From sequence record LC483177.1: 64,000 nucleotides of DNA. One strand, given 5' to 3'. Below the pieces are notes generated by a model. It made no database searches. It saw nothing but the letters and a program-made list of their open reading frames with translations, and was not told where the DNA came from. The position numbers and the translations under genes were made by a program. This document shows, in pieces, positions 2,589 to 62,317 of this stretch (positions are counted from its first letter, which is position 1; every line of letters starts with the position of its first letter). Source of the DNA: Klebsiella phage 05F01.

Positions 2589-4282
2589 CTATTCACTGGT
2601 ATATCAACTAAGTTACCTAGGGCTGGAGTAGCTACAGAGCCACTAACTGTATATGTTATAGCTCTAACTTCTATTGTTATAGTTGACCCGGTGTCACTTA
2701 CAATAGTTGCAACTAGTCCCTGTATTCCACCATTAGTAGTCTGAAGTGGAGATTTTATTTTCCATAGGTTACTTGCAGTACCTGTAGTTGCACCAGTTAT
2801 TGTATATGTTCCTTTGGCAGTCTTATTTACTGTAACTAACCCCAAACCAGCATAACCTCTGTTTATCGCAGAATATGTATCATTTTGTAAAAATGAATCT
2901 CTAACAGGACTTTTTGTTGAAGAAGAAATACCGTTTGTAATTCTGACAACAGCTCCTGTTGTTTTAACTATCTCTCCAGTATTAACTGGAACATATGTAT
3001 TAGATGTTAAAGATTTGGCAATATCAATATAAACTATACCACTAGGTTCTGTAGTTAAATAGCTATCCCCTACTTGATTAACAATAACTTTATTACTTCC
3101 GTCTGATGATTTTTTAGCAATTCTTATAGGTATTAATGTAGCACCTTCATTTCTTGTTGCCAACTTGGAATAAACTTTTAGTGTACCATTTGCTGCATCG
3201 TACACATATCCAAAAGAAACTAAATTAGATGTTGTAAATCTATAATCTGAATCATCTCTAAGATTCGTCACCCTCAACACATGTTTTGCTGTATAAGTGT
3301 TTAAAGTAGATACAAAAACATCATTACACTCTATCAAATAGGTATAAATAGATTCAGATAGAGAGCCACCTACTGTATATAACCCTGTAAAGTTTGGCCC
3401 AGAATTAGTTATACCTACCTTAACAGTAAATAACTCTGTCCAGATAACTGAAGAATTTTGAGAAATTGGATTTATGGTGCCTAATAATAGTGGGTCTACA
3501 ATATCTTTTGTAGTGACTACTCTTGGAGAGACTATTTTAGAGTCTTCATAAGGGGGTGCAAAATTAGTATATTGACCTGGCCCAGCAATATACATATCTG
3601 AAGACCCATCGTCTTTAGGGATAAATATTAAACTAGAGTGTAAAGAATCATCTTCTGCCCCTGCAAAAGGAATTCTTAAGATATTCCCATTTAATCCATC
3701 AGTTCCTTGTCCATATAATTCACTAAAAGGTATTGCAACTCTGGATGCAGTAATAATACCATCTTTAACTGAGTAAGTTTGTAGTCTTCCGCGTTCATCA
3801 ATTAGGAGAGAACCTTTATTATTCTCTCCCCCAAAAGTTATCCCTGCGATACCTTTAGGATCTGATGCCCCTTGAATAACTTCGTATTGACCTCTTTGTT
3901 TAATCCTATCAAAAATAGAATTAAAATCACTTCCTACAAGAGACTCCCCTTCAGCAGTAAAGAAATTACCAACATATTGATATCCAATACTACTCCCTAA
4001 TTCTTGATCAGATAAAATTATAGCTTTTTTTAGACTATAAGTTCCTTCATCTGTATTAACTAGGAGTACATCATCAGAGATAGTCCAAGAAGTTGGTGTC
4101 CCTATAGCTTGATCACGATACCAGCAAGTTTGTGTATCTTTATCATATAAAATTGTATATGAATCTACTGCGGTTGAAGTAGATAAATACCCAACTTGTC
4201 TCTTTTTAAGCCCGTATACACGGGCTATTGCTTCTTTATTAGTCTCTTTAGAGACCATTCCTTTTGGTTGTGTTAATTGCAT
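2558..4282 (-). CDS. tail fibre protein
   Basis: 574 aa, Ser/Thr/Gly/Val-rich and repetitive in composition. Lies in the fibre cluster downstream of the baseplate genes. Confidence 0.5.
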   Translation of the reverse strand: MQLTQPKGMVSKETNKEAIARVYGLKKRQVGYLSTSTAVDSYTILYDKDTQTCWYRDQAIGTPTSWTISDDVLLVNTDEGTYSLKKAIILSDQELGSSIGYQYVGNFFTAEGESLVGSDFNSIFDRIKQRGQYEVIQGASDPKGIAGITFGGENNKGSLLIDERGRLQTYSVKDGIITASRVAIPFSELYGQGTDGLNGNILRIPFAGAEDDSLHSSLIFIPKDDGSSDMYIAGPGQYTNFAPPYEDSKIVSPRVVTTKDIVDPLLLGTINPISQNSSVIWTELFTVKVGITNSGPNFTGLYTVGGSLSESIYTYLIECNDVFVSTLNTYTAKHVLRVTNLRDDSDYRFTTSNLVSFGYVYDAANGTLKVYSKLATRNEGATLIPIRIAKKSSDGSNKVIVNQVGDSYLTTEPSGIVYIDIAKSLTSNTYVPVNTGEIVKTTGAVVRITNGISSSTKSPVRDSFLQNDTYSAINRGYAGLGLVTVNKTAKGTYTITGATTGTASNLWKIKSPLQTTNGGIQGLVATIVSDTGSTITIEVRAITYTVSGSVATPALGNLVDIPVNSWLDVHTTLI

Positions 4283-7076: not shown

Positions 7077-7549
7077 TTAATGTTCAGTGGGTAATTTTTA
7101 GAATCTTTTGCTTTTCTTAATTCTACAAGATATTCTTTTATCTTTCTTATATCTTCCATGTCACTTTCAGTATTAAAACCTAAAGTATCCATAGCTTTTA
7201 TCTCGGTTATGTGGTCTATTGCTCTTCTTTTTAAACGTAAGTATTTTTTATCACAAATATCTTTATGTTTCTCTAAGTCCTTTATCAATATACTGGAGTA
7301 TTTGTCAACAAAATAAGAACTTTCTGTTTCTACAGTAAAAATATTATCTATACAAAGGATGGATACAACCTGACCATAGCTTAAAGATAGATCTTCACCT
7401 GAATTTTTAACCTCAAGGATTGTTCCATCTTCGGTTGAGTAGAGGACTTTATTTTCATATCTAAGGAGGCTTCTCACCTCCTTTGTATAGGAGATATCTA
7501 CATAATTTATGTTATGTTGTCTCATAATAAGGAACTTCCCCTGAACCAT
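7040..7549 (-). CDS. hypothetical protein
   Basis: 169-aa ORF in the fibre/baseplate cluster with consistent strand and spacing. Confidence 0.3.
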   Translation of the reverse strand: MVQGKFLIMRQHNINYVDISYTKEVRSLLRYENKVLYSTEDGTILEVKNSGEDLSLSYGQVVSILCIDNIFTVETESSYFVDKYSSILIKDLEKHKDICDKKYLRLKRRAIDHITEIKAMDTLGFNTESDMEDIRKIKEYLVELRKAKDSKNYPLNIKWPIYPMEVTCQ

Positions 7550-8006
7550 CTGTATTGATATAGGCCCTTAAAGCTATTCTATAAGATGTAAGTTGTGATT
7601 TAATATCTAATAACTTATCCTCTGAATAGTCTGAATAGTCTTTATCTTCTATCATGTAGCCATATTCAGTTAATTCATTTGTAGTTGTATAATAAAGAGA
7701 TTTCGCTTTTTCAAGTCTACTTTTTTTATCTAGAACAACTTGTTCAGCTTTTTGTTCTTCTGATTGTATCCAAGTCTTTGTATCTGTATCAAAGGAATAT
7801 AGAATTGATGGTCTAGCATCATCAGATACAGTTAGTGTGTCTTCTGATAGATAGACAAAATACCCCTCATTTATCTTTGATAAGTAGTCAATCCAAGACT
7901 TTTCATCTATTGTAACTAAGTCAGAGGGAAGCGTTGAGTACTCAAGTTCCTCACTGTAAAATGCTTGATTTTTTGGACTAAATAACATATTATCTCCCGA
8001 TTGCAA
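7512..8006 (-). CDS. hypothetical protein
   Basis: 164-aa ORF, co-directional and tightly packed with its neighbours. Confidence 0.3.
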   Translation of the reverse strand: MQSGDNMLFSPKNQAFYSEELEYSTLPSDLVTIDEKSWIDYLSKINEGYFVYLSEDTLTVSDDARPSILYSFDTDTKTWIQSEEQKAEQVVLDKKSRLEKAKSLYYTTTNELTEYGYMIEDKDYSDYSEDKLLDIKSQLTSYRIALRAYINTDGSGEVPYYETT

Positions 8007-9663: not shown

Positions 9664-11150
9664 TATACCGCCCCGTAAGAGTATGAAATGTTATCTAAAT
9701 CGAGGCTTGGTATCTCATAATAAGCTGGAGATATATCATCTGTTGAATAAGATGAATCTTCCTCATTACTTAGTTTAACATAAACAGTAAGTGAAGTCAA
9801 GCGACCAAAAGATAAAGCACCATAAACAACCCCTTTTATTTGATCAAGATAAATCCCACTACCTATCTCAAAGTTAGCTTCTAGTGTAGTTAATGCAGAA
9901 ACAATGGCAGCTTTCTCAGTTGTCGTTAAAGATTTCTCATTAGACGTTGTATACTGGAGTTTGATATCATAATCAGCTTCAGATGCAGGTGTATATTTTA
10001 TAGTTTCAGTTCCACCATCTTCTGTAGATATTATTGTAGAGACAGACCCATAGGTTTTAGTGTTAATAGGTTTAGTTTCATATAGAGTCTGAGCTATATC
10101 TGCCTGATTTCCACCTGATACTATGGTATTGAATGTAAAAGCTTCTGCTTCAGTTGAATCGATATTGGTTGGGTTATCATAGATTCTAACTTTAGTGACA
10201 CCATCTAGATCTAGAATTGCTCTGATAATTGCAGGTCTTGTTGATGCCTGTGCTTCATCTTGCTCATCATTAAACCTTGCTCTAAATTCAGCATCAGTTT
10301 CTACATCAGTTCCAGAGGAGAATTCAGTAAAATTCCCTGTTGCAGAATATCCAGTGAATGTTGAAGAGATACCACTAATACCACCCTTACCTAATGCATA
10401 ATAACCTTTTGTAGAAGCTGTAACAGGAATTAAACTCCATTTTGTGCCTAAAGAATAGTTAGCATACAATGAAACTGAATTTGTTAATCCCACTGGATTA
10501 GTTAAGTCACTTGAATCAAATCCTACATATAATGTATTAGATGAAACAAATACATTAGACGTATCTGAATCAGAAACATTATCCTGAATAAAGGTAGCTA
10601 GATTAGAGAGAAAATTAACATCTGTTGTGGTTAATGTTGTAGAACTAAGTGCACCTGTTGAGTAGTTTGAACAATAAAAAGTAACACTGGTGGCTGTAGA
10701 TGTAGCTGAAGATCTTGTTAATGTGTATGCGGATACCTTAGATTTTAGGTCAGTATCAGAAGAAACATAATATAAAATATCATTAGTTCCTGTAAAATAA
10801 GTATCTGTAGTTATTTCATAAGACCAATCTGCACTTGCAGTTGTTTTGACAAAAGCGTAGCCTGCCCCTGCTGATGCTGATTTTCTATAAAGGCCCCTTT
10901 TAGAGAATAGATCATCTAGATAAACACCCTCTGCACCATTTAATGTCTGTGTATTATAGACACCCTGAAGTCCTTCCCATAAAGTATAATCAGTATATGC
11001 AAGGATCCTAAAGAACTGTCCAAAGACAGTATCTTCTCCTGTTGCTACATCGGTACCAAATGTATCAGATAGTGCATTTAAATAATTATCCAAAACTTGA
11101 TCATAAGTTGGCATTATAAAGCCGTTATCTGTTAAACCATAGCTTGCCAT
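9663..11150 (-). CDS. baseplate wedge protein (J-like position)
   Basis: 495 aa, placed after the gp25-like gene in baseplate order. Acidic, Ser/Thr-rich. Confidence 0.4.
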   Translation of the reverse strand: MASYGLTDNGFIMPTYDQVLDNYLNALSDTFGTDVATGEDTVFGQFFRILAYTDYTLWEGLQGVYNTQTLNGAEGVYLDDLFSKRGLYRKSASAGAGYAFVKTTASADWSYEITTDTYFTGTNDILYYVSSDTDLKSKVSAYTLTRSSATSTATSVTFYCSNYSTGALSSTTLTTTDVNFLSNLATFIQDNVSDSDTSNVFVSSNTLYVGFDSSDLTNPVGLTNSVSLYANYSLGTKWSLIPVTASTKGYYALGKGGISGISSTFTGYSATGNFTEFSSGTDVETDAEFRARFNDEQDEAQASTRPAIIRAILDLDGVTKVRIYDNPTNIDSTEAEAFTFNTIVSGGNQADIAQTLYETKPINTKTYGSVSTIISTEDGGTETIKYTPASEADYDIKLQYTTSNEKSLTTTEKAAIVSALTTLEANFEIGSGIYLDQIKGVVYGALSFGRLTSLTVYVKLSNEEDSSYSTDDISPAYYEIPSLDLDNISYSYGAV

Positions 11151-37711: not shown

Positions 37712-38590
37712 TTAACATAAAATTTGTTTTTGAACTTCTTTCTGATTTTCTACCAGAACACCTGTAGTGTTGTCAACATTATTTTCCCAAACATTGAAAG
37801 AATGAATTTTATCAATGTAAGTTGAAAGAATATCCACTCCTTTAGAGAAGATACCATGAGTGACATACAACTCAACCTTACCAGCATTTCGTTCTTTAAG
37901 AACTTTTGCTAGTTCAATGAACGTCCTTCCTCCATCACAGATATCATCCACGATCATAAGATTCATTCCATCAAAATCCAATACAGGGATATTAGTCTTA
38001 ATGATTTCACCTGTCAAGGTGTCTCTTACTTTTTCTGCACAATGAACTTCTACACCAAGACGTTTACCAAGTTTGAAGATTTTCTTAAGAGCACCACCAT
38101 CAGGACTAACCAGATGGAAAAATTCTTGCTTAATCTTCCATGCCAACATATGGAATGCAACATCATCTTGTTCAATGACAGTAAGATTGTTAATCACTGC
38201 ACGTGACACATCACTGTGTGGGTCAACAACAATCACTTCATCAAATTTAAGGCTATTTAAAATGTTTGCGAAAGCTTTAACACCAAATGCCTCTCCTGGC
38301 TCACAGAATCGATCCTGGCGGGCGTAAGGGATATACATCATCCAAAGACACACCTTTACATCTAAACCTCTTACAACCTCATCCAGAGCGTTTTTGACCA
38401 TAACCAGTTCCATGAGGTCTTGGGAGTTCTTAACTTCATGATAGACAGAAACGGTTGTGCCAACTCCTACAAGCTTATCTACATCATTCATATCAAGCTT
38501 AACATGAACTTCTCCTCCAGAGAAAACAATCTTCTCACATCTAATTTCTTCTGTTAAATATGTATACTTATTAAAAACTTCAATCTTCAT
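37712..38590 (-). CDS. prs: ribose-phosphate pyrophosphokinase (PRPP synthetase)
   Basis: 292 aa with a PRPP-binding loop (MIVDDICDGGRTF) and a DPHS motif. Confidence 0.85.
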   Translation of the reverse strand: MKIEVFNKYTYLTEEIRCEKIVFSGGEVHVKLDMNDVDKLVGVGTTVSVYHEVKNSQDLMELVMVKNALDEVVRGLDVKVCLWMMYIPYARQDRFCEPGEAFGVKAFANILNSLKFDEVIVVDPHSDVSRAVINNLTVIEQDDVAFHMLAWKIKQEFFHLVSPDGGALKKIFKLGKRLGVEVHCAEKVRDTLTGEIIKTNIPVLDFDGMNLMIVDDICDGGRTFIELAKVLKERNAGKVELYVTHGIFSKGVDILSTYIDKIHSFNVWENNVDNTTGVLVENQKEVQKQILC

Positions 38591-41214: not shown

Positions 41215-41429
41215 CATGTAGATTCTTTAATGGAGCTATAATTTGTTTCAACCCATCTTATAGATTAAGAACTGGTGATGGTGGATATGTCTATATGGAT
41301 TGGCATCACTATTGTGGTCCCACATTCTATAAAGATAAAAGGTTAACCAAAGAAGTTGAAGATTGGTGGGAAAATGAATACATATGCAAAGCATTAGATT
41401 GGTTTATTCACCGAGGGGAAAGGGCATGA
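41211..41429 (+). CDS. hypothetical early protein
   Basis: 72-aa ORF, ATGA-coupled. Confidence 0.3.
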   Translation: MTCRFFNGAIICFNPSYRLRTGDGGYVYMDWHHYCGPTFYKDKRLTKEVEDWWENEYICKALDWFIHRGERA

Positions 41430-41779
41430 AAGTTATTTGGTTGGATGACTTAAGAGATCCAAAAGATTATGGGTATCCTCATGCTATTTGGTTTAAAACT
41501 TCACAGGAAATACTTAACTCACATTATCTGAGTAGTCTGCAAAAAGGGTATCGTTTTGTTGATGAGTGGCATTTTGACAACGACTTAGGTGAAGAATCTT
41601 ACCAAGATGGTTATGATGTATTCAAAGTACTTGAAGAACTTCTGGTGTTTGGTAAACCGTGCTTCGGGAATCCCAAAATCTACGTGCATACATCAAATCC
41701 TTCTGCTGCTAACAAATTTATGCTTGCAAAAGATAGCATGGAAAGGTATGGTGTAGAAATTAAGAGAGTCAACTATTAA
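41384..41779 (+). CDS. hypothetical protein
   Basis: 131-aa ORF. A likelier start is the MKVIWLDD Met, preceded by GGGGAAAGGG. Confidence 0.3.
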   Translation: MQSIRLVYSPRGKGMKVIWLDDLRDPKDYGYPHAIWFKTSQEILNSHYLSSLQKGYRFVDEWHFDNDLGEESYQDGYDVFKVLEELLVFGKPCFGNPKIYVHTSNPSAANKFMLAKDSMERYGVEIKRVNY

Positions 41780-42906: not shown

Positions 42907-43446
42907 ATGTATGTAACCTCAGACTTACATTTCTTTCATAAGAATGTTCTTGATTTTCAGAGTCATACAAGGCCATTTAAAGACATTGATGAAATGAATC
43001 AAGCTTATGTAGACCATTGGAATTCTCTCGCTGTAAAGAGTGTAATTAAAATGTTTCATCTAGGGGACTTTAGTTTTGGCGGTCCTTCCCAAACAGAGGA
43101 GGTTGCATCTCAACTTAAAGGTGATATTATATTTTTAAAAGGTAACCATGACCGCTTACATACGATTAAAGTACTTGAGAAGTATGGTGAGGTAAAGGAC
43201 TACCATGAAGAGAAGTACAAGAAACATTTATTCTGCATGATGCATTACCCTATCTATGAGTGGAATAAACAACATCATGGATCTTTCATGCTTCATGGAC
43301 ACTGCCACGGAAAAATGGTAGAGTCAGAAGAATCTAGGGGAAGGACTATGGATGTTGGTATAGATGTTCATGGAAGATTCTTGCATTTTGACGAGATAAT
43401 CGACAAACTAACTGAACGTGAAATTGTAACTGCTTGGGGTAGATAA
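42907..43446 (+). CDS. metallophosphoesterase (calcineurin-like Ser/Thr phosphatase or phosphodiesterase)
   Basis: Motifs D-x-H (SDLHFFH), GD (HLGDFSFGG) and GNHD (LKGNHD) in canonical order; 179 aa. Confidence 0.6.
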   Translation: MYVTSDLHFFHKNVLDFQSHTRPFKDIDEMNQAYVDHWNSLAVKSVIKMFHLGDFSFGGPSQTEEVASQLKGDIIFLKGNHDRLHTIKVLEKYGEVKDYHEEKYKKHLFCMMHYPIYEWNKQHHGSFMLHGHCHGKMVESEESRGRTMDVGIDVHGRFLHFDEIIDKLTEREIVTAWGR

Positions 43447-44683: not shown

Positions 44684-44891
44684 TGTATGTTTAATTGGTT
44701 TTGGTGGAGAAGCTGCTTTATTTTGTTTTGATGATGCAAGTGATTTATTTTCTATTACACAAGAAATTCAATATGAGTATGAAAGAAATCCTTTCCAAGT
44801 CAAAGAATTTATGGTTTGTTGCACAACAAAATATTATGAAGATAGTATTATTGATGAAGTATCAGAATTACTAGAGGAGATTGGTATTTGA
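44661..44891 (+). CDS. hypothetical protein
   Basis: 76-aa ORF. Confidence 0.25.
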   Translation: MRVYMAASVCLIGFGGEAALFCFDDASDLFSITQEIQYEYERNPFQVKEFMVCCTTKYYEDSIIDEVSELLEEIGI

Positions 44892-46198
44892 AACAGATTA
44901 AAACAACACTTTATGCACTGAATAAAAATGGTTCACATCAAAAATGGCATGTTTATGTAGATGGAAACACTATTCTTGTCCACTTTGGTCAGGATGGTGG
45001 AGCTACTCAAGTTAAGAAAACAGTATGCACAGGTAAAAATGTAGGTCGTTCAAATGAAACAACTGACGAAGAGCAAGCTGTTCTGGAAGCTATCTCTAAG
45101 TGGGAAAAGCAAGTTCGTCTTGGGTATAAGGAATCTAAAGAGGAACTAGTAACTGATTTTGTTATGTCTCCTATGCTTGCATGTGATGCTCTTAAAAAAC
45201 CTAATGCAATCAAATATCCTTGCTTTGGTCAACCTAAGCTTGATGGACTTCGTTGCTTAGTTACATTTGATGAGAATGGCACTCCTATTTTTAATAGTCG
45301 AGGCAATAAAGAGTATGCTATTAAAGGTAAGATTGTAGAGCAAATTAAAGATATCAAAGAAAAAACTAACTTCGATATGCTTGATGGTGAAGTGTATATT
45401 CATGGTTTGCCTTTACAGAAAATCGTTGCATTAGTTAAGAAGTGGCGTACCCATTCCGATATTGAAATTGAGATTGAAAAAGATTATCAAGGTGATATCA
45501 AACGTCGAAACAAAGCAATTAAAGATGGAGCGCCAACATATAAAAACTTTGCAAAACTTGAAGTTTCAGTTGACACTATTCCAGAGAAAGATATTCATCG
45601 ATATGGTGGATATGAGAGTGCAGACTTACAATTCCATATTTTTGATGTTCCAAGTGATCTGGAGTGGGACCCTATTGCAGACCCAGAGGCATCCTATTTA
45701 GACTACTCCCTAGAAGAATCTAGATGTAGATATTCAGACCTTATGGATCTAGATATCATTTCATCTGATATGTCACATATCAAAGTTGTTATGGGTAATT
45801 ACTATAACACTGAAGAAGAAGTTAAGGCTGCTATAGGTTTCTTTATGGAAAATGGTTATGAAGGAATCATTGTAAGAAACCTTGATGGAGTATATGAATT
45901 TGGTCAACGTTCAAATGATTTAATCAAATGGAAGATCTTCCAGACTACAGAAGCTTTTGTTAATGGATATACTATTGACAAAAACAATGAACTTCTGTTA
46001 GAATGTGTCCTTAAATCAGGTGTGGAGTTTGGTGTTAAAATGAAAGGTTCACATGCATACCGTAGCACATGCACACACTTAGTAAATAACTTCATTACAA
46101 TAAGTTTCCAAGCATATACTGTTGATGGTGCACCTCAATTCGCAGTAGGAATTTCTGAACGTGATGTAAACCCAGAGACTTGGGAACCATTAGAATAA
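44888..46198 (+). CDS. ATP-dependent DNA ligase
   Basis: Adenylation motif I KxDGxR (QPKLDGLRCLV); 436 aa; nucleotidyltransferase plus OB-fold architecture. Confidence 0.8.
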   Translation: MKQIKTTLYALNKNGSHQKWHVYVDGNTILVHFGQDGGATQVKKTVCTGKNVGRSNETTDEEQAVLEAISKWEKQVRLGYKESKEELVTDFVMSPMLACDALKKPNAIKYPCFGQPKLDGLRCLVTFDENGTPIFNSRGNKEYAIKGKIVEQIKDIKEKTNFDMLDGEVYIHGLPLQKIVALVKKWRTHSDIEIEIEKDYQGDIKRRNKAIKDGAPTYKNFAKLEVSVDTIPEKDIHRYGGYESADLQFHIFDVPSDLEWDPIADPEASYLDYSLEESRCRYSDLMDLDIISSDMSHIKVVMGNYYNTEEEVKAAIGFFMENGYEGIIVRNLDGVYEFGQRSNDLIKWKIFQTTEAFVNGYTIDKNNELLLECVLKSGVEFGVKMKGSHAYRSTCTHLVNNFITISFQAYTVDGAPQFAVGISERDVNPETWEPLE

Positions 46199-52261: not shown

Positions 52262-52588
52262 ATGAGACAAGATCAGATTGATGAATTAAAACCACAATAT
52301 CGTGAAATCACAGAAGCAATTTTTGGAGCAATGCTTTCTTCAGAAGGTGTGACTACCCTTGAAGATGTTCTCCCTAATCCTGATGAATTTATTGAAGGTA
52401 TGATTAAGAGTGCTTACAGTGAAGGATTTACTGAAAAAGATATTGATGCTATCATTAAATTCAATAAGAAGTATGAGAAGAAAAACAATACTGCTAAACT
52501 GCGTTCTCAAATGTTTATTGAAAAATATTTTGAAGAGAATATTGCAAGCATTGAAGCACATTTTAATAAATTTAAGGAGAATAAATGA
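52262..52588 (+). CDS. hypothetical protein
   Basis: 108-aa ORF immediately upstream of thyX. Confidence 0.3.
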   Translation: MRQDQIDELKPQYREITEAIFGAMLSSEGVTTLEDVLPNPDEFIEGMIKSAYSEGFTEKDIDAIIKFNKKYEKKNNTAKLRSQMFIEKYFEENIASIEAHFNKFKENK

Positions 52589-53565
52589 CAAACCAGATTT
52601 CAGCAAAGGTAATTGCCCATAGTGTAGCATTTGGTAGTGATAATGAAATTGTGACATTTGAACTGGAATATCCACGAATTATTCACAGTGAATTAATGAC
52701 ACATCGTCTGTTTAGTCGTAATGCAGCATCAAGTCGTGCTATTCCTGTAAAAACCTTAATTGAAATGGTTAGAAATGAGCCAGCAATGCCTTATCGGTTT
52801 GGTGCAAACCAGCCGGGGATGCAGGATAAAGGCGTAGAGCACGACAGTGAAGTTGGTGCAGGATATTCCGGTAGAGATTGGTGGAGACTCGCTGCTCTTA
52901 GTGCTGCAAACTTTGCGGAGCAACTGTCCGACGCAGGGTATCATAAACAAATTGCAAATCGATTACTAGAGCCTTTCCAGCGTATCAAGACGGTTCTTAC
53001 AGCTACGGAGTTTGCTAATTTTTGGTGGTTGCGTTTAGATAAGGATGCTGACCCTACCATTAAAAAGTTAGCAGAAGTTATGAAAGAAGCTTACGATGCT
53101 TCTGAAAAAGAAGTTCTGAAACCGGGTGAATGGCATACTCCTTATGTCTTACATTCAGAAGGTAAAGATGGTGAAATTGGTTATTATGTTCTTGACGAAA
53201 GTGGTAAATGGCCTGTAGATTTATCTCTTGAAGAAGCATTGGGTATTTCTTCTTCATGTTGTGCTCAAGTTAGTTATCGTCGTCTTAACTCTACTAAAGA
53301 TAAGGCACTTGATATCTATGGTCGTTTATTGTCTGGTGATAAAGTTCATGCCTCCCCTTTCGAGCATCAGGCAACACCGATGAAGAAAAAGTATAATAAG
53401 ACCAATGAATGGGGAGACACCTTATGGACCATTAATAACCCAACAGATGTAGATTCTTGGGAGAAAGGTATTACACACATGGATAGAAATAAGAACTTAT
53501 GGTCTGGTAATTTCAAAGGATTTATTCAACACCGTCAACTATTAAATAACCATACTGTTTGGTAA
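52585..53565 (+). CDS. thyX: flavin-dependent thymidylate synthase ThyX
   Basis: ThyX signature RHRxxxxxxxSxR present (MTHRLFSRNAASSRAIP); 326 aa. Confidence 0.9.
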   Translation: MTNQISAKVIAHSVAFGSDNEIVTFELEYPRIIHSELMTHRLFSRNAASSRAIPVKTLIEMVRNEPAMPYRFGANQPGMQDKGVEHDSEVGAGYSGRDWWRLAALSAANFAEQLSDAGYHKQIANRLLEPFQRIKTVLTATEFANFWWLRLDKDADPTIKKLAEVMKEAYDASEKEVLKPGEWHTPYVLHSEGKDGEIGYYVLDESGKWPVDLSLEEALGISSSCCAQVSYRRLNSTKDKALDIYGRLLSGDKVHASPFEHQATPMKKKYNKTNEWGDTLWTINNPTDVDSWEKGITHMDRNKNLWSGNFKGFIQHRQLLNNHTVW

Positions 53566-54379: not shown

Positions 54380-56638
54380 GTGATTAATTTTGTTACGAAA
54401 GAGAATGGTAAAAAGGAAGAATTCAAAGTAGAGAAACTCCGAAAATGGTCGGAGTTTTCATGGAATAACTCAAAAGGTAAGGTTAATTGGTCAGAGATTG
54501 AACTTGAAGCTATTAAACGTTGCTATGATGGTATCCCAACACGTGACCTACATAAGGCAATGATTGATGTCTGTGTTGATAAGCAAGAAGAACGGTATCT
54601 TATCCCTGCTGGTCGTCTTCTTATTGGTCAAGTGTATAAGGATGCACATGGTGGATTTAATATGATCCCTAAATTCACTGACTTCAATAAAGATATGATT
54701 AAGCGTGGCCTTTGGGAAGATATGCATTATTCTGAACAAGAACTCCTGCAATTTGAAAAAGCAATTAATCATAATAAAAACCTTGAATATGGGTATTCAG
54801 TTATCCGACAGTTAGTTGATAAATATCTTATCAAAGATAACGTAAATAACATCGTTCATGAATCCCCTCAATTTGCCTTTATGGGGATTGCAATGAAGGT
54901 TATGCAGAAGCAACCTTTAGATCGACGCAGCGAAGATGTCATTAAGCTTTATAAATATGTTAGTGAGTTGAAGATTAATTTACCTTCACCTTACCTGACC
55001 ACTCTTCGGACACCAATTACAGGTAGTGCTAGTTGTTGTGTATTCCGTGCAGATGATACAGCCAGTAGCTTGAGCGTTGCTAACCACATTGCACATGAAT
55101 TCACATTAAACAATGCAGGTATCGGTGTTTACCTACAGACCCGTGCAACAGGTCGTGGCGTTAAAAAGAACCGTATCGTTCATGGAGGTTTACTCCCTTA
55201 TTGGCGTTGGATGGAGTCAAGTGTAGGTGCTTCTAAACAAAGCTCTCGTGGTGGTAATGCTACAGTGACATTTACTTGTCTTGAACCTGACTGGAAAGAC
55301 CTTATTCAGACTAAAAATCCACTTACCCCAGCAGAGAAACGAGTAGATAAACTTGATTACTCTGTAGTAGTTAATAACGCATTCCTTCGTCGTGCTGCTA
55401 AAAAGCAAGACTGGATGTTAGTCAGTTATGACGATGCACCGGAACTTTATGAAGCTCTATATAAATCAGAAGAAGTTTTTGATGAGGTTTATGAGAAAGT
55501 AAGTCGTAAACGTATTAAAAAGACAATTGTTAATGCACAGAAGATGCTTCTTGATATTGTTAAGCAACGTTATGAAACAGGACGTATCTACCTGTTCTTT
55601 GCAGATAATGCAAACACGCATACACCTTTTAAAGAGACGATTTATCAGAGTAACCTTTGTCAAGAGATCTTTCTGCCAACAAAACCTTTCCATAGTGTAG
55701 CTAATCTGTACTCTGGAGAAGATATTAATGATGGTGAAGTTGCTTTATGTTTTCTTTCTGCTATTGTAGCAGGTCGTGTTAAGCCAGAAGAGTATGAAGA
55801 TGTTGCATACTACACTGTATTAACTATCGATAACGTAATTGACACTATGAAGTACCCATTCAAACACACAGAGATTACAGCTAAAGCACGTCGTTCTATT
55901 GGTGTTGGTATCACAAACCTGGCACACTATCTTGCATCAAATATGGTTAGCTACTCATCAGAGAAAGGTAAGCAGATGATGCACGAATTAGCTGAACTTC
56001 ATTACTATAGCTTGGCGAAAGCTTCTTTGCGTCTTGGTAAAGAAAAAGGTAATGCAGAATGGATGGATAAAACAAAATGGCCCGAAGGTTGGTTACCAAT
56101 TGATACCTACTCTAAGAACTTAGATTCAGTTGCTGATTTCGAGAATAAATGTGATTGGGAAACACTACGTAAAGAGATTATTGAAAATGGTGGTATCCGT
56201 AATAGCGTTCTAGTTGCTCATATGCCTTGTGAATCTAGCAGCGTTGTCAGCAATACAGTTAATGGGTTATATCCTATTCGTGATTTAGCACTGTTTAAGC
56301 AGTCTCAGAAAGGTAACGTTTCATTTATTGCCCCTGATGCTGATAAGCTTAAATTGTTCTATGATTATGCTTATGAAATGGAAAAAGAGCCTGTAGCTGA
56401 TACTTATGCAATCTTTAGTAAATTCACTGATCAAGGTATTTCTGCTGATGAGTATGAAAACTTAACTAAAGAAATGAGTAGTGAAGAACGAACTAAACGT
56501 TCAGTAAAATTCATTCTGCGATGTGCTAAGAATGGTGTTAAGAGTATCTACTATCTAAACAGTAAAACAAAATCTTCTAATACGATTGCCCAAGATGTTG
56601 AAGAAGATGAATCAGGATGCGAGTCCTGTGCAATGTAG
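54380..56638 (+). CDS. nrdA: ribonucleotide reductase class Ia large subunit NrdA
   Basis: 752 aa with an N-terminal ATP cone, the catalytic NLCQEI motif and a C-terminal CESC redox pair. Confidence 0.9.
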   Translation: MINFVTKENGKKEEFKVEKLRKWSEFSWNNSKGKVNWSEIELEAIKRCYDGIPTRDLHKAMIDVCVDKQEERYLIPAGRLLIGQVYKDAHGGFNMIPKFTDFNKDMIKRGLWEDMHYSEQELLQFEKAINHNKNLEYGYSVIRQLVDKYLIKDNVNNIVHESPQFAFMGIAMKVMQKQPLDRRSEDVIKLYKYVSELKINLPSPYLTTLRTPITGSASCCVFRADDTASSLSVANHIAHEFTLNNAGIGVYLQTRATGRGVKKNRIVHGGLLPYWRWMESSVGASKQSSRGGNATVTFTCLEPDWKDLIQTKNPLTPAEKRVDKLDYSVVVNNAFLRRAAKKQDWMLVSYDDAPELYEALYKSEEVFDEVYEKVSRKRIKKTIVNAQKMLLDIVKQRYETGRIYLFFADNANTHTPFKETIYQSNLCQEIFLPTKPFHSVANLYSGEDINDGEVALCFLSAIVAGRVKPEEYEDVAYYTVLTIDNVIDTMKYPFKHTEITAKARRSIGVGITNLAHYLASNMVSYSSEKGKQMMHELAELHYYSLAKASLRLGKEKGNAEWMDKTKWPEGWLPIDTYSKNLDSVADFENKCDWETLRKEIIENGGIRNSVLVAHMPCESSSVVSNTVNGLYPIRDLALFKQSQKGNVSFIAPDADKLKLFYDYAYEMEKEPVADTYAIFSKFTDQGISADEYENLTKEMSSEERTKRSVKFILRCAKNGVKSIYYLNSKTKSSNTIAQDVEEDESGCESCAM

Positions 56639-56643
56639 AATAA

Positions 56644-56668
56644 GGGGCGAAAGCCCCTTTTTATTTAA
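56644..56668 (+). terminator. rho-independent terminator AGGGGCGAAAGCCCCTTTTTATTT
   Basis: GGGGCGAAAGCCCC hairpin plus T-run immediately after the nrdA stop. Confidence 0.55.
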
Positions 56669-56683
56669 ATAAGGAGGAATAAT

Positions 56684-57763
56684 TTGTCAGCTATAAATTT
56701 TGATAATAAGAATTATGAAAGTGGTAAATACCCATTATTTTTAGGTGAAGATTTAGGTTTGTATGATACAATCAATATTACATATAACAGTATTGAGAAA
56801 AATTACCTTAAGCAACGTGCTCAGATGTGGGCTGAAACTGAAGTTAGTTTAGACCAGTCTCGTAAGGACTTTGCTACCTGTTCTGAAAATAACTACAATG
56901 TAATGATCAAGAACTTGTCCTATCAATGGAGTGCAGATTCATTGGCAAAATCTATTATTGCATTATTCAGCCCTTTCATTTCCAATAATGAACTGGCGGG
57001 GGGCTTTATGTTCCAAAGTGCAATGGAAATCATTCACTCAAGAACATACTCTGAAATTATTCGTCAGTGTATTAAAGATCCACAAGAGATTTTTACTGAG
57101 ATCCGAGCTAACAGTAACATCTTTGATAGGATGGAAACTGTTGAAAAAGCCTTCTCAGAACTAAAAAAAGCAGGGCATGAATATTCTTTAGGCATGATTG
57201 AGGTAAATGACAACCTTCGCCTTATTATTCTCAAAGGTGTATTTGCACTACTGGCACTTGAAGGTATCCAGTTTATGTCTTCATTCTCTGCAACATTTGC
57301 AATGGGTGAACAACAACTCTTTGTAGGCGCTTGTAAGCTTATTTCTAAAATAATGCTTGACGAGATACTGCATTCTCAGTTAGACTTAGACATCATTGAG
57401 AGTTTACTTAAAGAACCAGAATGGAAACGTGTTTATGATAATAACTCTGGTGAATTAAAAGCAATTCTTGATGAAGTTGTAAAATCAGAGGAACAATGGG
57501 CAGATTATTTGTTCTCTGAAGGACGTGTTGTGCTTGGTTTGAATGCTCCACTAATGAAAGAGTGGCTATGGCATAATGCATCTCCAATTTATCGTCGTCT
57601 GAAACTTCCTTACGATTTTCCTGCTACGTCAAAAAATCCACTGCCTTGGATGGATAAATGGATGAACCCAGATAAAGTTCAGACTGCTAATATGGAGATA
57701 CAAAAGACTGAGTATAAACTTAATGTTTCTTCTACAGATATTGATGAGGAGTTTGATTTCTAA
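56684..57763 (+). CDS. nrdB: ribonucleotide reductase small subunit NrdB
   Basis: 359 aa with di-iron ligand helices (EIIHSRTYSEII). TTG start preceded by AAGGAGG. Confidence 0.85.
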   Translation: MSAINFDNKNYESGKYPLFLGEDLGLYDTINITYNSIEKNYLKQRAQMWAETEVSLDQSRKDFATCSENNYNVMIKNLSYQWSADSLAKSIIALFSPFISNNELAGGFMFQSAMEIIHSRTYSEIIRQCIKDPQEIFTEIRANSNIFDRMETVEKAFSELKKAGHEYSLGMIEVNDNLRLIILKGVFALLALEGIQFMSSFSATFAMGEQQLFVGACKLISKIMLDEILHSQLDLDIIESLLKEPEWKRVYDNNSGELKAILDEVVKSEEQWADYLFSEGRVVLGLNAPLMKEWLWHNASPIYRRLKLPYDFPATSKNPLPWMDKWMNPDKVQTANMEIQKTEYKLNVSSTDIDEEFDF

Positions 57764-57936: not shown

Positions 57937-58161
57937 ATGGAAGCAATGATAAGTAGTCAGAAAAGTATCAGGTTAGGGGGTTTAGCTTATATGCTGCTGG
58001 AAACAGCAGCTAAAGAAAAATGCCCTTTTGCATATAAAGAGAATATTAAATCATTCGAGTCACAACCTGATTCTTTCACTTTCTGTGGTGTGATCTATGT
58101 TAAAGAGGAAGAGAAGTCTTTATTCAATTCAGTAAAAAGTATTTGGGAGAGCTATTCTTGA
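57937..58161 (+). CDS. hypothetical small protein
   Basis: 74-aa ORF immediately upstream of rmlB. Confidence 0.3.
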
Positions 58162-59141
58162 GATATCTTATTACAGGAGGATTAGGTTTCATAGGAAGTG
58201 CTGTAGTTAGAAAACTACTTGAAAGTAAGGATAATGTAGTAGGAATTATTGATTCAGAAACCTATGCGGCAGATAGCAGAAATGTTCCACTATTCTTTGT
58301 AGATTATTTTAATGTTGACTTATCTAACAAAGATGATGTAAATTCTGTTGTTAAAGAATTTAATCCAGATTATGTAATGCACCTTGCTGCGGAGAGTCAT
58401 GTAGATAATTCAATAAAGTCACCTTCATTGTTTATTGAATCTAATATCATAGGTACTTTTAATCTACTAGAGGCTGTCCGTTTCTACGCACCCAATTTAA
58501 TTAAATTCCATCACATTTCTACCGATGAAGTGTATGGAGACCTTAGTGACAGAGAAGAACTGAATTCACTGTTTAAGGAGACAGATGCATATGATCCTAG
58601 CAGCCCTTACTCTGCTTCGAAAGCAGCAAGTGACCATCTGGTGAGGGCATGGCACCGAACTTACGGTTTACCTACGGTAATCACCAATTGTTCAAATAAC
58701 TATGGACCATATCATCACCCGGAGAAGCTGATTCCACGTGTAATCACAAATGCTCTTTTGGGTAAGGAAATTCCTATCTATGGTGCAGGTAGTCAAATTC
58801 GTGATTGGCTCTATGTAGAAGACCATGCAAAGGCACTGATTACTGCCGTAATGAATGCTGTTCCTGGTAGCACCTATAATATAGGTGGACATAACGAAAG
58901 GTCTAACTTACGTGTAGTAGAAATAATTCTTAATCTCCTTAAAGATAAGACAGGCAAAGACTACACTCACTTAATTAAATACGTTACAGATCGTCCTGGT
59001 CATGATTTAAGGTATGCTATTGATGCCACCAAGATTGGTGATGAATTAGGTTGGCATCCAGAAGAAACTTTTGAATCTGGTATTGATAAAACAGTAACAT
59101 GGTATCTTGAAAATAGAGAATGGTGGGAGGGCAAGATTTGA
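58158..59141 (+). CDS. rmlB: dTDP-glucose 4,6-dehydratase RmlB
   Basis: GGLGFIGS Rossmann motif and YSASK catalytic motif. Likely TTG start at 58158 (the ORF track opens at 58143). Confidence 0.85.
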
Positions 59142-60004
59142 AAGGTATTATTTTAGCTGGCGGGAGTGGTACCCGCCTATACCCAATAACAAAAGGTGTA
59201 AGTAAACAGCTACTACCAATTTATGATAAGCCAATGATTTACTACCCACTATCAGTTCTTATGTTAGCTGATATTAGAGAAATTCTAATTATTACAACTA
59301 GAGAAGATCAAGATAACTTCGTATCATTGCTAGGGGATGGCAGCAGCATAGGTATTAGTCTATCTTATGCTATTCAAGACCAACCTAAAGGTTTAGCTGA
59401 AGCTTTCATTATTGGTGAGGACTTTATTGACGGAGATGATGTTGCACTTGTATTAGGTGACAACCTCTTTTTCGGTCAAGGTTTTAGTAGCAAGCTGAAT
59501 AGAGCTAAAGACTTAGTTAGTCACTCTGGAGGTGCTGTTTTATTTGGTTATGAAGTAAAAGACCCTGAAAGATTTGGTGTAGTAGAGTTTAAAGGTAATG
59601 AGGTAATTAGCATTGAGGAAAAACCTGCCAATCCTAAGTCTAATTGTGCAGTAACAGGACTATATTTTTATGACCACACTGTAGTGGAAAAAGCAAAAAG
59701 TATTTCTCCATCCATCCGGGGTGAACTTGAGATCACTGACATCAATAATCTATACTTAATTGATGAAAATCTCTCAGTAGAGGTATTAGGGAGAGGTTTT
59801 GCATGGTTAGACACAGGCACCCATGAGAGTATGTTAGATGCATCACAATTTGTTAGAACAATACAAAAGCAACAAGGTATGTATGTCGCATGTTTAGAGG
59901 AGATTGCGTATAAAAAGGGCTGGATAGGTAAGAAAACTCTTTTAGAGATATCTAAATCTATGTTAAAGAATGACTATGGACAATACATTATGGAGCTAAT
60001 ATGA
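59120..60004 (+). CDS. rmlA: glucose-1-phosphate thymidylyltransferase RmlA
   Basis: [16 protein letters not shown] signature; 294 aa. Confidence 0.9.
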
Positions 60005-60576
60005 TGATTCAAAATGCAGGTGCAGATGGACTATATGTCATTACACCTGATGTTTTTAAAGACTCACGAGGATATTTTCTAGAGACAAGTAATAATATCA
60101 CATATAAAGATATTCTCAATGGAGAGTCTTTTGTTCAGAGTAATGCATCCCTTTCTAAGAAAGGGGTGTTACGTGGGCTACATTATCAAACTAAAAATGT
60201 TCAAGGTAAGTTGGTTTCTGTTAGCAATGGTTCTGTTATAGATGTGGTGGTAGACTTAAGAAAAGAGTCAGATACTTATCTTAAGTACTTTACTCAGTTC
60301 CTTTCATCTGATAATAACTTACAATTTTATGTCCCACCAGGTTTTGCTCATGGATTTGTATCTCTTGAAGAAAATACAAGGTTTGAATATAAATGCACAG
60401 ACTACTACGCACCAAAGAGTGAAAAAACATTGTTGTGGTCTGACTCTGATATAGGTATAGATTGGGATAGTATTCTATATGAATTCAACCTTGACTATTT
60501 CATCCTCTCAGATAAAGACCAAAGAGGACTAACTCTTAAGGAGATTTTGATTGAAAATCCTAGTATTTGGGGCTAA
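60001..60576 (+). CDS. rmlC: dTDP-4-dehydrorhamnose 3,5-epimerase RmlC
   Basis: 191-aa cupin-type epimerase positioned between rmlA and rmlD. Confidence 0.7.
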
Positions 60577-61360
60577 TGGTCAACTTGGAAGTATCTTTTG
60601 TGAAAAATACAGAGATCTGTCTGTCCCTTTAACATCAAAAGATGTTGACATAACTAACTACAATGATGTAAGATATGCACTATTAAACATTAAGCCTGAT
60701 ATTGTCATTAACTGTGCTGCATACACTGATGTAGCTAAAGCAGAAGTTGATTTAGACTTGGCTTACAATGTAAATGCTACTGGTGCTTATTCTATATCAT
60801 CAATCTCTAAAGAGATTTCAGCAAAAGTTATCCACATATCTACAGATTATGTATATAATCAAGATGGCCCTATCTATGTAGGTGATAAAACAAACCCAAT
60901 AAATAATTATGGTAAGACAAAGTTAGATGGGGACAAATTAGTATCCTATGCAGATAAGAATAACTTAGTGATAAGAACCGGTTCATTATTTTCTGACAGA
61001 GGTAAAAATTTCATTCTAACTTTGATAAATGCATATAAAAATGGCAAGATGGATTTTGATATTGTTGATGATATGTTATCAAGACCTACATCTGCATTTG
61101 ATCTAGCTGATGTAATCTATAAAAATAGGGATTTATCTGGGACAGTTCATTTTTCAGGGGACACATTAATATCATGGTATGACTATGCTAAATTGATATT
61201 TAAATTTGACCCATTAGTTAAGATTAATGCCGTAAAATCTGCTGAATCAAAAGTAAAAAGACCAATGGTATCTGACCTCATTTCTACACCTATCTTTGAT
61301 GTATCTGATTTTAAATATAATCTAGAAAAAACACTAACACTACTTGGAGTATCTAAATGA
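60551..61360 (+). CDS. rmlD: dTDP-4-dehydrorhamnose reductase RmlD
   Basis: [13 protein letters not shown] Rossmann N-terminus and NCAAYTDV motif; 269 aa. Confidence 0.75.
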   Translation: MKILVFGANGQLGSIFCEKYRDLSVPLTSKDVDITNYNDVRYALLNIKPDIVINCAAYTDVAKAEVDLDLAYNVNATGAYSISSISKEISAKVIHISTDYVYNQDGPIYVGDKTNPINNYGKTKLDGDKLVSYADKNNLVIRTGSLFSDRGKNFILTLINAYKNGKMDFDIVDDMLSRPTSAFDLADVIYKNRDLSGTVHFSGDTLISWYDYAKLIFKFDPLVKINAVKSAESKVKRPMVSDLISTPIFDVSDFKYNLEKTLTLLGVSK

Positions 61361-61581
61361 TCACTATTTATGGAAAAGAAGATTGCCCTTATTGTGAGGC
61401 AGCACAAATGTTAATGGAAGCACGTGGACTGGATTTCGAATATAAAGATATGAAATCTGATCCAGAAGTATTTGATGAAGTGACTAAACGCCTTGGTGGC
61501 ATTCCTCCACGACTCGCACCTCAAATTTTTGATGGTGAGGTTTATGTTGGTGGATTTGATAAAGCAAAAGACTACTTTTAA
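61357..61581 (+). CDS. glutaredoxin / NrdH-like redoxin
   Basis: CPYC active site in a 74-aa thioredoxin-fold-sized protein. Confidence 0.75.
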   Translation: MITIYGKEDCPYCEAAQMLMEARGLDFEYKDMKSDPEVFDEVTKRLGGIPPRLAPQIFDGEVYVGGFDKAKDYF

Positions 61582-61735: not shown

Positions 61736-62317
61736 TTGAGTATAACAGAAGACCAGTATAAAAAGGCTGCTAGTGACCTTGGGGTTTCAGTAGCCGCAAT
61801 TAAAGCAGTTGCAGAGGTTGAATCTAATGGTAGTGGATTTATTGCCTCTACAGGACAACCAAAGATACTTTTTGAACGTCATATCATGTATAAGCAGCTT
61901 GTTAAAAACGGACTGCAAGCAGTAGCTGATGAAGCACTGAAAACACACCCTACAGTGGTTAATAAAACAGCAGGTGGGTATAAAGGAGGTGTTAATGAGT
62001 GGCTTCGCCTAGATGAAGCAGTTGACTTGGACCGCAAATCTGCGCTAGAGTCCTGTTCATGGGGAGCATTTCAAATCATGGGATTCTACTGGAAAACCTT
62101 GGGATACTCTTCTATACAAGACCTTGTTAATGCAGCTTATAGTGGTGATGCAGGTCAACTTGATATGTTTGTAAGATTTATCAAAGCAAACCCAGGGATT
62201 GTAAAGGCTATGAAGAATCTTGATTGGGCGAGCGTAGCCAAGCAGTATAACGGTGTTAACTATGCTAAAAACAAGTATGATGTTAAATTACGTGATGCTT
62301 ATAAAAAATATAGTTGA
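61736..62317 (+). CDS. putative endolysin (N-acetylmuramidase-like peptidoglycan hydrolase)
   Basis: 193 aa with an EVESNGSGF ... ILFERH ... WGAFQIMGFYWK pattern like DUF3380-type muramidases. TTG start. Confidence 0.5.
   Translation: MSITEDQYKKAASDLGVSVAAIKAVAEVESNGSGFIASTGQPKILFERHIMYKQLVKNGLQAVADEALKTHPTVVNKTAGGYKGGVNEWLRLDEAVDLDRKSALESCSWGAFQIMGFYWKTLGYSSIQDLVNAAYSGDAGQLDMFVRFIKANPGIVKAMKNLDWASVAKQYNGVNYAKNKYDVKLRDAYKKYS

Follow-up and report, generated by a model that had tools for sequence, protein, structure and literature searches.

A complete dTDP-L-rhamnose biosynthesis cassette at the nrdB-glutaredoxin locus of Klebsiella phage 05F01 and candidate uses of its sugar

Introduction

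Why would a virulent phage lineage carry its own pathway for an activated 6-deoxyhexose, and to what would the sugar be attached? This question is raised by a block of four genes, rmlB, rmlA, rmlC and rmlD, in the genome of Klebsiella phage 05F01 (sequence record LC483177.1), of which a stretch of 64,000 nucleotides, referred to here as the window, was analysed. An earlier reading made from the letters of the window alone, called here the sequence-only reading, had regarded the block as a complete dTDP-L-rhamnose operon and had proposed three candidate uses of the product, namely remodelling of the host surface, glycosylation of the virion and modification of DNA, which has turned out to be the right set to consider. 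The account favoured here, to which we assign a probability of roughly 0.45, is that the block is a working and inherited dTDP-L-rhamnose cassette whose product would be used by a glycosyltransferase (GT) cluster of the same lineage, with the acceptor leaning towards a virion protein.

The cassette itself is already known, and the novelty implied by the sequence-only reading cannot be upheld. It occurs at the same locus in more than 130 deposited genomes of the phi92/phAPEC8 type, had been treated in papers of 2020 and 2021, and is annotated in GenBank for 05F01. The literature on phAPEC8-type phages describes a complete dTDP-rhamnose pathway within the DNA-metabolism region; Olsen et al. called the cassette peculiar and suggested, speculatively, a role in DNA glycosylation, while Maffei et al. 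2021 reported putative machinery for dTDP glycosylation in phi92-like phages, together with an exceptional susceptibility of these phages to restriction-modification. Our literature search for an established role of rml genes in phages returned speculation only. What is added here is comparative, including the insertion of the cassette between nrdB and the glutaredoxin gene (grx), its monophyly, the purifying selection acting on it, a core, rmlCD, that is always retained, and, as a candidate partner, a GT cluster with a late-gene setting.

Enzyme assignments and selection on the rml genes

The chemistry of the Rml family is established. Following it, RmlA would convert glucose-1-phosphate and dTTP to dTDP-glucose, RmlB would dehydrate dTDP-glucose to dTDP-4-keto-6-deoxy-D-glucose, RmlC would epimerise this intermediate at C3 and C5, and RmlD would carry out the C4 reduction that yields dTDP-L-rhamnose. 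In the window, RmlB reached 440 bits against TIGR01181 (cut-off 365.1), RmlA 463 bits against TIGR01207 (cut-off 360.65) and RmlC 203 bits against TIGR01221 (cut-off 155.75), all above the thresholds of these NCBIfam equivalog families. Residues 1-323 of RmlB align to Salmonella RmlB (1g1a), with TDE and YSASK retained, and RmlA is aligned end to end with PDB entry 4ho0 (E 2e-123) and carries the GGxGTRL motif. Compared with solved RmlC proteins, the window RmlC retains GLHYQ, QGKLV, YKCT and SDKD, which represent the His/Lys/Tyr/Asp catalytic set.

As for RmlD, it passes Pfam RmlD_sub_bind (197.6 bits, cut-off 27), every one of its top PDB matches is an RmlD protein (E 3e-42 to 1vl0), and GxxGxxG, the threonine of STDYV, and YGKTK are retained. 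It has the same sequence as the NCBI entry 'putative dTDP-4-dehydrorhamnose reductase [Klebsiella phage 05F01]', which comes from a 147,331-bp contig, and, judged from these matches, appears to be a divergent RmlD-type reductase. The statement of the sequence-only reading that all four Rml enzymes are present with intact signatures is thus borne out by family scores and motifs, with RmlD falling below its equivalog cut-off. It is well supported that, in the infected cell, the cassette would turn glucose-1-phosphate and dTTP into dTDP-L-rhamnose, or possibly the C4 epimer.

Selection on the genes was assessed by comparison with L016, a 9.8-kb contig from a sequencing run, in which the block is present with 85-95% identity at the nucleotide level. 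The ratios of nonsynonymous to synonymous substitution rates (dN/dS), calculated by the Nei-Gojobori method, were 0.094 for rmlB, 0.052 for rmlA, 0.080 for rmlC and 0.099 for rmlD, compared with 0.007 for nrdA and 0.029 for nrdB. The rml genes have the same lengths in both sequences and contain no internal stops. Decay of the genes to pseudogenes, which had been named beforehand among the outcomes that would overturn the sequence-only reading, was therefore not found.

Phage group and evolutionary history of the cassette

The window has the layout of a myovirus genome, with structural genes on the minus strand from 1 to 38 kb and genes for replication and nucleotide metabolism on the plus strand from 40 to 64 kb. 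Its large terminase subunit, TerL, shares about 70% amino acid identity with those of the phi92/phAPEC8 phages (Stephanstirmvirinae) and with that of Klebsiella phage KP2025, and phage 05F01 is accordingly placed, on sequence grounds, as a deep-branching relative of the Stephanstirmvirinae. A megablast search of the window against the phage collection gave no DNA-level match. When compared open reading frame (ORF) by ORF, the window is collinear over its full length with Escherichia phage PaulScherrer, whose annotated NrdA and NrdB share 68% and 60% amino acid identity with the 05F01 proteins, and the near-identical L016 genes match the Pfam Ribonuc_red families. Five GenBank records labelled 'Campylobacter phage' (MG065639, MG065645, MG065656, MG065689 and MG065650, for A150, A145, C3, A110a and B15, respectively) grouped with phi92/phAPEC8-type coliphages in all searches, and their Campylobacter host label looks doubtful.

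The backbone order thyX-nrdA-nrdB-rmlBACD-grx-lysin-phoH is common to 05F01, PaulScherrer and phAPEC8, and phi92 has the same order; KP2025, with rmlC-rmlD alone, also matches 05F01 gene by gene along this stretch. More precisely, PaulScherrer, phi92 and phAPEC8 carry thyX, two small ORFs, nrdA, nrdB, small ORFs, rmlB, rmlA, rmlC, rmlD, glutaredoxin, a small ORF, endolysin and PhoH. The same backbone is found without rml genes in the sister Vequintavirinae phages nom and KP12 (thyX-nrdA-nrdB-grx...endolysin-PhoH), in which the grx homologue follows nrdB directly or one ORF later. Because these phages possess the backbone without the rml genes, the cassette is best read as an old insertion into the nrdAB-glutaredoxin unit, between nrdB and grx, and the glutaredoxin would belong functionally with nrdAB rather than with rml. 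The neighbourhood of nrdAB and thyX described in the sequence-only reading was confirmed, with nrdA, nrdB and a ThyX-like gene upstream of the block, and so the cassette does lie in a nucleotide-metabolism region; as a pointer to a DNA-related role, this location loses its weight, since it is explained by the old insertion site.

A neighbour-joining tree of RmlA, built from the 120 best database matches and the phage sequences with 200 bootstraps, placed the window RmlA inside a 40-member clade of named phage sequences and sequences from phage-genome-sized contigs, separated from bacterial sequences in 200 of 200 replicates. Likewise, the RmlD proteins of the window, PaulScherrer, phAPEC8 and KP2025 form one clade (194 of 200 bootstraps), to which long-branch attraction may contribute. 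The rml genes have a G+C content of 31-37% and a third-position G+C content (GC3) of 21-27%, equal to the core phage genes. The phage clades of RmlA and RmlD, the insertion site and the phage-like base composition together point to one old acquisition by an ancestor of the phi92/phAPEC8/05F01 myoviruses, probably followed by vertical descent. From the single phage clades, the dN/dS of 0.05-0.10 and the phage-like GC3, the rml genes are predicted to be functional and vertically inherited.

The closest known counterparts belong to Justusliebigvirus (phi92 gp064-067; PaulScherrer bas60_0210-0213), which resemble 05F01 in the genes, their order and the nrdB-glutaredoxin locus, with a small ORF, endolysin and PhoH downstream, but differ in the type of endolysin, in the small ORFs upstream of rmlB and in the host, which is E. 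coli instead of Klebsiella. Amino acid identities between PaulScherrer and 05F01 are 58% for RmlB, 70% for RmlA, 50% for RmlC and 40% for RmlD. In Phapecoctavirus (phAPEC8_00100-00103), the cassette and its locus are as in 05F01, with identities of 40-68%, while Klebsiella phages KP2025, KP13-26 and FKP3 share both backbone and host genus with 05F01, and no RmlC in the phage collection comes closer than theirs (51% identity). Bacterial rfb/rml operons, such as those of Salmonella and E. coli (RmlBDAC), encode the same enzymes with identical catalytic residues, and the chemistry is presumably shared; unlike them, 05F01 has the order B-A-C-D, a G+C content of 36%, sequences in a clade apart from the sampled bacterial ones, and no adjoining genes for O-antigen or capsule glycosyltransferases, flippases or polymerases.

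Retention of the rhamnose-specific steps

Searches of the phage collection by tblastn found RmlD in 155 records, RmlC in 167 and RmlA in 138. Among Escherichia phage records, rmlA is present in 88 as compared with 107 for rmlC/D, and no Klebsiella phage record has a match to rmlA, although rmlC/D is present in seven of them. Phage KP2025, for example, carries rmlC-rmlD alone at the nrdB-grx locus, phage Eryne has a truncated rmlA, and ESCO37 (Phapecoctavirus) has been published as lacking both rmlA and rmlB. Unlike the Klebsiella-infecting relatives in the collection, 05F01 possesses all four rml genes.

Because the relatives that have lost rmlBA retain rmlCD, the constant presence of RmlC and RmlD alongside repeated loss of rmlBA points to the rhamnose-specific steps as the ones probably under selection. 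Enterobacterales produce dTDP-4-keto-6-deoxyglucose via RffH and RffG for the enterobacterial common antigen, and this host supply of the 4-keto intermediate would explain why rmlBA could be lost in many relatives.

Glycosyltransferases of the lineage

About 45 ORFs of the window were scanned with Pfam or PHROGs and no glycosyltransferase was found among them, in agreement with the sequence-only reading, which had seen none in the window. Two minus-strand ORFs of 279 and 236 amino acids (Table 1) matched no Pfam or PHROG family and had no homologue in the compared stretches of PaulScherrer. In PaulScherrer and phi92, a four-gene cluster beside the primase/helicase gene is annotated as glycosyltransferases or 'disaccharide synthases', and the first ORF of the window is the counterpart of bas60_0040, which puts the homologous place of this cluster 8-11 kb to the left of window position 1. 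Given this position in the relatives, the absence of a GT would be an edge effect of the window.

The GT-B paralogues of the relatives comprise one with a GT1/GT4-type Pfam match and another with a weaker, sub-threshold match; a profile of three GT-B paralogue sequences gave no meaningful match to PDB sequences. The small GT of 228 amino acids belongs to a family with a conserved FDDD motif, and its structure model, with a predicted local distance difference test score (pLDDT) of 88, is predicted to adopt a GT-A fold. A reading of this protein as a TET-associated glycosyltransferase was considered and dropped, as its Pfam TAGT match lies below threshold (23.3 bits, cut-off 27.5) and its Foldseek neighbours are generic GT-A proteins, namely STIV A197, B4GALNT1, TarP and RmlT, all with a template modelling (TM) score of at most 0.54. 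Distant homologues of the small GT are present in the F1-cluster mycobacteriophages Pacc40 and Llij (25-29% identity).

Homologues of these GTs occur in the same set of approximately 136-141 records as rmlC/D, and no match at E<=1e-5 was found in the many Vequintavirus records. As well, a related phage contig of 135,572 bp (L013, Logan SRR24146891) carries a gene resembling NDP-hexose 4,6-dehydratase (2667-3737; TIGR01181 171 bits, below the cut-off) within the GT cluster, next to primase/helicase. Outside the group, a GT-A/GT-B pair homologous to PaulScherrer bas60_0050 and bas60_0048-49 is located immediately upstream of the terminase and portal genes in at least eight unrelated IMG/VR contigs (among L030-L041). 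In the lambdoid-like contigs, the pair lies downstream of NinG and the antiterminator Q, that is, in late-operon territory. An additional GT2-like gene follows the pair in L038 and L039.

Proposed use of the sugar and rival explanations

We propose that the four rml genes are translated as one coupled block, and that this would assure a supply of activated 6-deoxy-L-hexose in any host strain, independent of the rml status of the host. The consumer would most probably be the conserved GT-A/GT-B cluster of the lineage itself, and the acceptor may be a phage virion protein produced late in infection, although the latter is a leaning only. Virion-protein glycosylation is favoured, with low confidence, over the host envelope and DNA as the acceptor, because the GT pair is late and adjacent to packaging genes in other phages and because the relatives are sensitive to restriction. 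A comparable arrangement is known from Che8 and other F1-cluster mycobacteriophages, where phage GTs are located just before the packaging genes and the capsid proteins are glycosylated. We know of no nucleotide-sugar pathway in F1-cluster mycobacteriophages.

Several points weigh against this account. Both the product and the activity of the cassette are predicted, and the stereochemistry at C4, which decides between L-rhamnose and 6-deoxy-L-talose, is not secured, because RmlD misses the NCBI equivalog threshold (TIGR01214, 192.2 bits, cut-off 224.05). The GT cluster is known from the relatives, its place in 05F01 being predicted by collinearity, and the co-occurrence of rml genes and GTs probably amounts to essentially one evolutionary event and is therefore weak evidence. 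A position next to the terminase is also common for unrelated accessory genes. Homology of the relatives' GTs to those of the Che8 virion-glycosylation system (gp108-110) was rejected, since the similarity to the Stephanstirmvirinae GTs is not significant, and Che8 is kept as a weak analogy. Furthermore, the searchable literature yielded no description of phi92-type virions carrying glycans.

The main rival is a remodelling of the host envelope, which we consider unlikely but by some distance the most serious of the alternatives. Here, phage dTDP-L-rhamnose would be added to lipid-linked glycans of the host, such as the lipopolysaccharide (LPS) core, O-antigen or capsule, or RmlC and RmlD would drain the precursor of the common antigen; the surface altered during infection may then limit superinfection or the loss of progeny on debris. 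According to the literature, the adsorption of these phages depends on surface glycans and the LPS core. Two GTs of the cluster have weak Pfam matches of the GT4/GT1 type, a class common in the synthesis of envelope glycans, the cassette lies within a region of early- or middle-type genes, and the conserved RmlC and RmlD would act on a branch-point intermediate shared with the common-antigen pathway. The pure drain version of this explanation is opposed by rmlA and rmlB: these would raise the level of the intermediate, and yet purifying selection maintains them in 05F01 and most relatives retain them. It also leaves the co-conserved GT cluster unexplained. Against envelope remodelling in general stands the homologous GT pair of the lambdoid-like contigs, which lies between Q and terminase, within the late operon, whereas known surface-conversion genes are usually found near the integrase. 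Moreover, among the genes seen in the window there is no flippase or polymerase that could act as a membrane-associated partner.

Hypermodification of the phage DNA, in which rhamnose would be attached to a modified base for evasion of nucleases, by analogy with the glucosylated hydroxymethylcytosine of T4 and the arabinosyl-5-hydroxycytosine of RB69, is improbable. The idea has been published as a speculation, and in its favour stand the position of the cassette beside nrdAB and thyX, that of the relatives' GT cluster beside the primase/helicase and DNA polymerase genes, and the weak TAGT match of the small GT. A precedent also exists in RB69 and DLP3, virulent phages in which a phage-encoded nucleotide-sugar pathway (UDP-arabinose genes) together with phage glycosyltransferases feeds DNA glycosylation. 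However, these two phages encode a base hydroxylase homologous to ThyA, and their DNA resists restriction, whereas the scanned ORFs of the 64-kb window include neither a hydroxymethylase or hydroxylase of the ThyA type nor a TET/JBP enzyme, but only a ThyX-like protein. The published finding that phi92-like phages and their relatives succumb exceptionally readily to restriction systems of types I, II and III argues against this option of the sequence-only reading, the genomic position is accounted for by insertion into the nrdB-grx unit, and the TAGT match is below threshold with a generic GT-A fold in the structure search. If rhamnose or its C4 epimer were nevertheless placed on phage DNA by the GT-A/GT-B enzymes of the lineage, it would be an undescribed kind of DNA sugar modification, sparse or so placed that the restriction enzymes tested on the relatives are not blocked, and we regard this as a long shot.

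Finally, the block as a mere passenger, a bacterial metabolic unit picked up with no selected function and still to be lost, as the dispensability of rmlA and rmlB in some relatives might suggest, can be set aside on the basis of selection and phylogeny, given the dN/dS of 0.05-0.10 in all four rml genes, the wholly phage-like base composition, and the single phage clades, which occupy one unchanging locus in lineages with as little as 70% terminase identity.

Gene layout and other features of the window

The genes rmlB, rmlA, rmlC and rmlD and a glutaredoxin gene with a CPYC motif are arranged head to tail on the plus strand (58158-61581; Table 1). The sequence-only reading had given the span as 57937-61581; its end, with the glutaredoxin, stands, while its start belongs to an unrelated ORF of 74 amino acids (ORF74) preceding rmlB. 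The order B-A-C-D and the translational coupling claimed there can both be read from the DNA, as stop and start overlap at all junctions of the block and a Shine-Dalgarno-like purine run lies before each. The overlaps are cTTGA at 58158 (ORF74 stop and rmlB start), TTGA at 59138 (rmlB and rmlA), ATGA at 60001 (rmlA and rmlC) and ATGA at 61357 (rmlD and grx), while the TTG of rmlD lies 26 nucleotides within rmlC with AAGGAG ahead of it. TTG thus serves as the start codon in three of the four rml genes; for rmlB and rmlA, the TTG starts are likely because the gene calls in the close relative L016 (RmlB of 327 amino acids) and the lengths of homologues agree with them.

Table 1. Features of the 64-kb window of phage 05F01 that are discussed in the text
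Feature	Coordinates	Strand	Remarks
ORF, 279 aa	30454-31293	-	
ORF, 236 aa	32866-33576	-	
Nicotinamide phosphoribosyltransferase	35493-37211	-	phrog_448, E 4e-195
PRPP-synthetase-like protein	37712-38590	-	
cREC_REC protein	41384-41779	+	
Phosphoesterase	42907-43446	+	
ATP-dependent ligase	44888-46198	+	
ThyX-like gene	52585-53565	+	326 aa; upstream of nrdA; weak Pfam Thy1 (PF02511) match, 32.8 bits, residues 23-168
nrdA	54380-56638	+	Class Ia ribonucleotide reductase, upstream of rml
Terminator-like hairpin	56642-56660	+	G+C-rich, with T-run
nrdB	56684-57763	+	Class Ia ribonucleotide reductase, upstream of rml
ORF, 57 aa	57763-57936	+	Between nrdB and ORF74
ORF74	57937-58161	+	74 aa; stop overlaps rmlB start; no Pfam/NCBIfam family
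rmlB	58158-59141	+	Likely TTG start (mechanical ORF start 58143); TIGR01181
rmlA, glucose-1-phosphate thymidylyltransferase	59138-60004	+	Likely TTG start (mechanical ORF start 59120); TIGR01207
rmlC, dTDP-4-dehydrorhamnose 3,5-epimerase	60001-60576	+	TIGR01221
rmlD-type dTDP-4-dehydrorhamnose reductase	60551-61360	+	TTG start; 269 aa; fast-evolving; Pfam RmlD_sub_bind
Glutaredoxin (CPYC)	61357-61581	+	Pfam Glutaredoxin, 46.6 bits
Endolysin	61736-62317	+	PF11860 N-acetylmuramidase
aa, amino acids; PRPP, phosphoribosyl pyrophosphate.

ORF74 has only two to three representatives among 1.84 billion proteins, is present in the close relative L016 with a dN/dS of 0.136, and by homology appears to lie outside the Rml pathway. 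The 57-aa ORF between nrdB and ORF74 is missing from L016, which has an additional 64-aa ORF (7488-7682) after the glutaredoxin gene; the rml block stays constant while small ORFs around it come and go. A promoter scan gave fewer sigma-70-like sites than shuffled controls (34 vs 47.7), and a G+C-rich hairpin with a T-run directly 3' of nrdA is the sole terminator-like site on the plus strand from thyX to phoH.

The ThyX-like protein carries the HRLFSRNAASSRA motif, and is more divergent and longer than typical ThyX. The endolysin of 05F01 is an N-acetylmuramidase, whereas the phi92/phAPEC8 relatives possess a T4-type lysozyme at that position, and the lysin thus seems to have been swapped within a conserved backbone. 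In addition, the window contains a gene for nicotinamide phosphoribosyltransferase next to one for a PRPP-synthetase-like protein, together resembling a pair for NAD+ salvage such as has been suggested elsewhere to counter NAD-depleting defences, and a cluster of genes encoding a cREC_REC (cyclic-phosphate processing receiver) protein, a phosphoesterase and an ATP-dependent ligase, which may be an RNA-repair set. Relatives of RmlD in IMG/VR were distant and uninformative. A jumbo phage contig of 344,580 bp (L004, IMG/VR) has a solitary RmlD gene (9992-10909; Pfam 282 bits) among tail-sheath, collagen-like and baseplate genes, with no other rml genes within 10 kb.

Significance

The comparison indicates that a virulent phage lineage keeps a private supply of activated 6-deoxyhexose under purifying selection, down to a terminase identity of about 70%. 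The identity of the acceptor would reveal a glycosylated virion, a remodelling of the host surface by lytic phages, or a new DNA modification. Rhamnosylated virion proteins, which are the milder and likelier version, would, if true, be the first case of virion glycosylation reported from these enterobacterial myoviruses. This is also of relevance to therapy, as broad-host-range phages of this kind are applied against both E. coli and Klebsiella, and their recognition by antibodies as well as their stability can be influenced by glycans.

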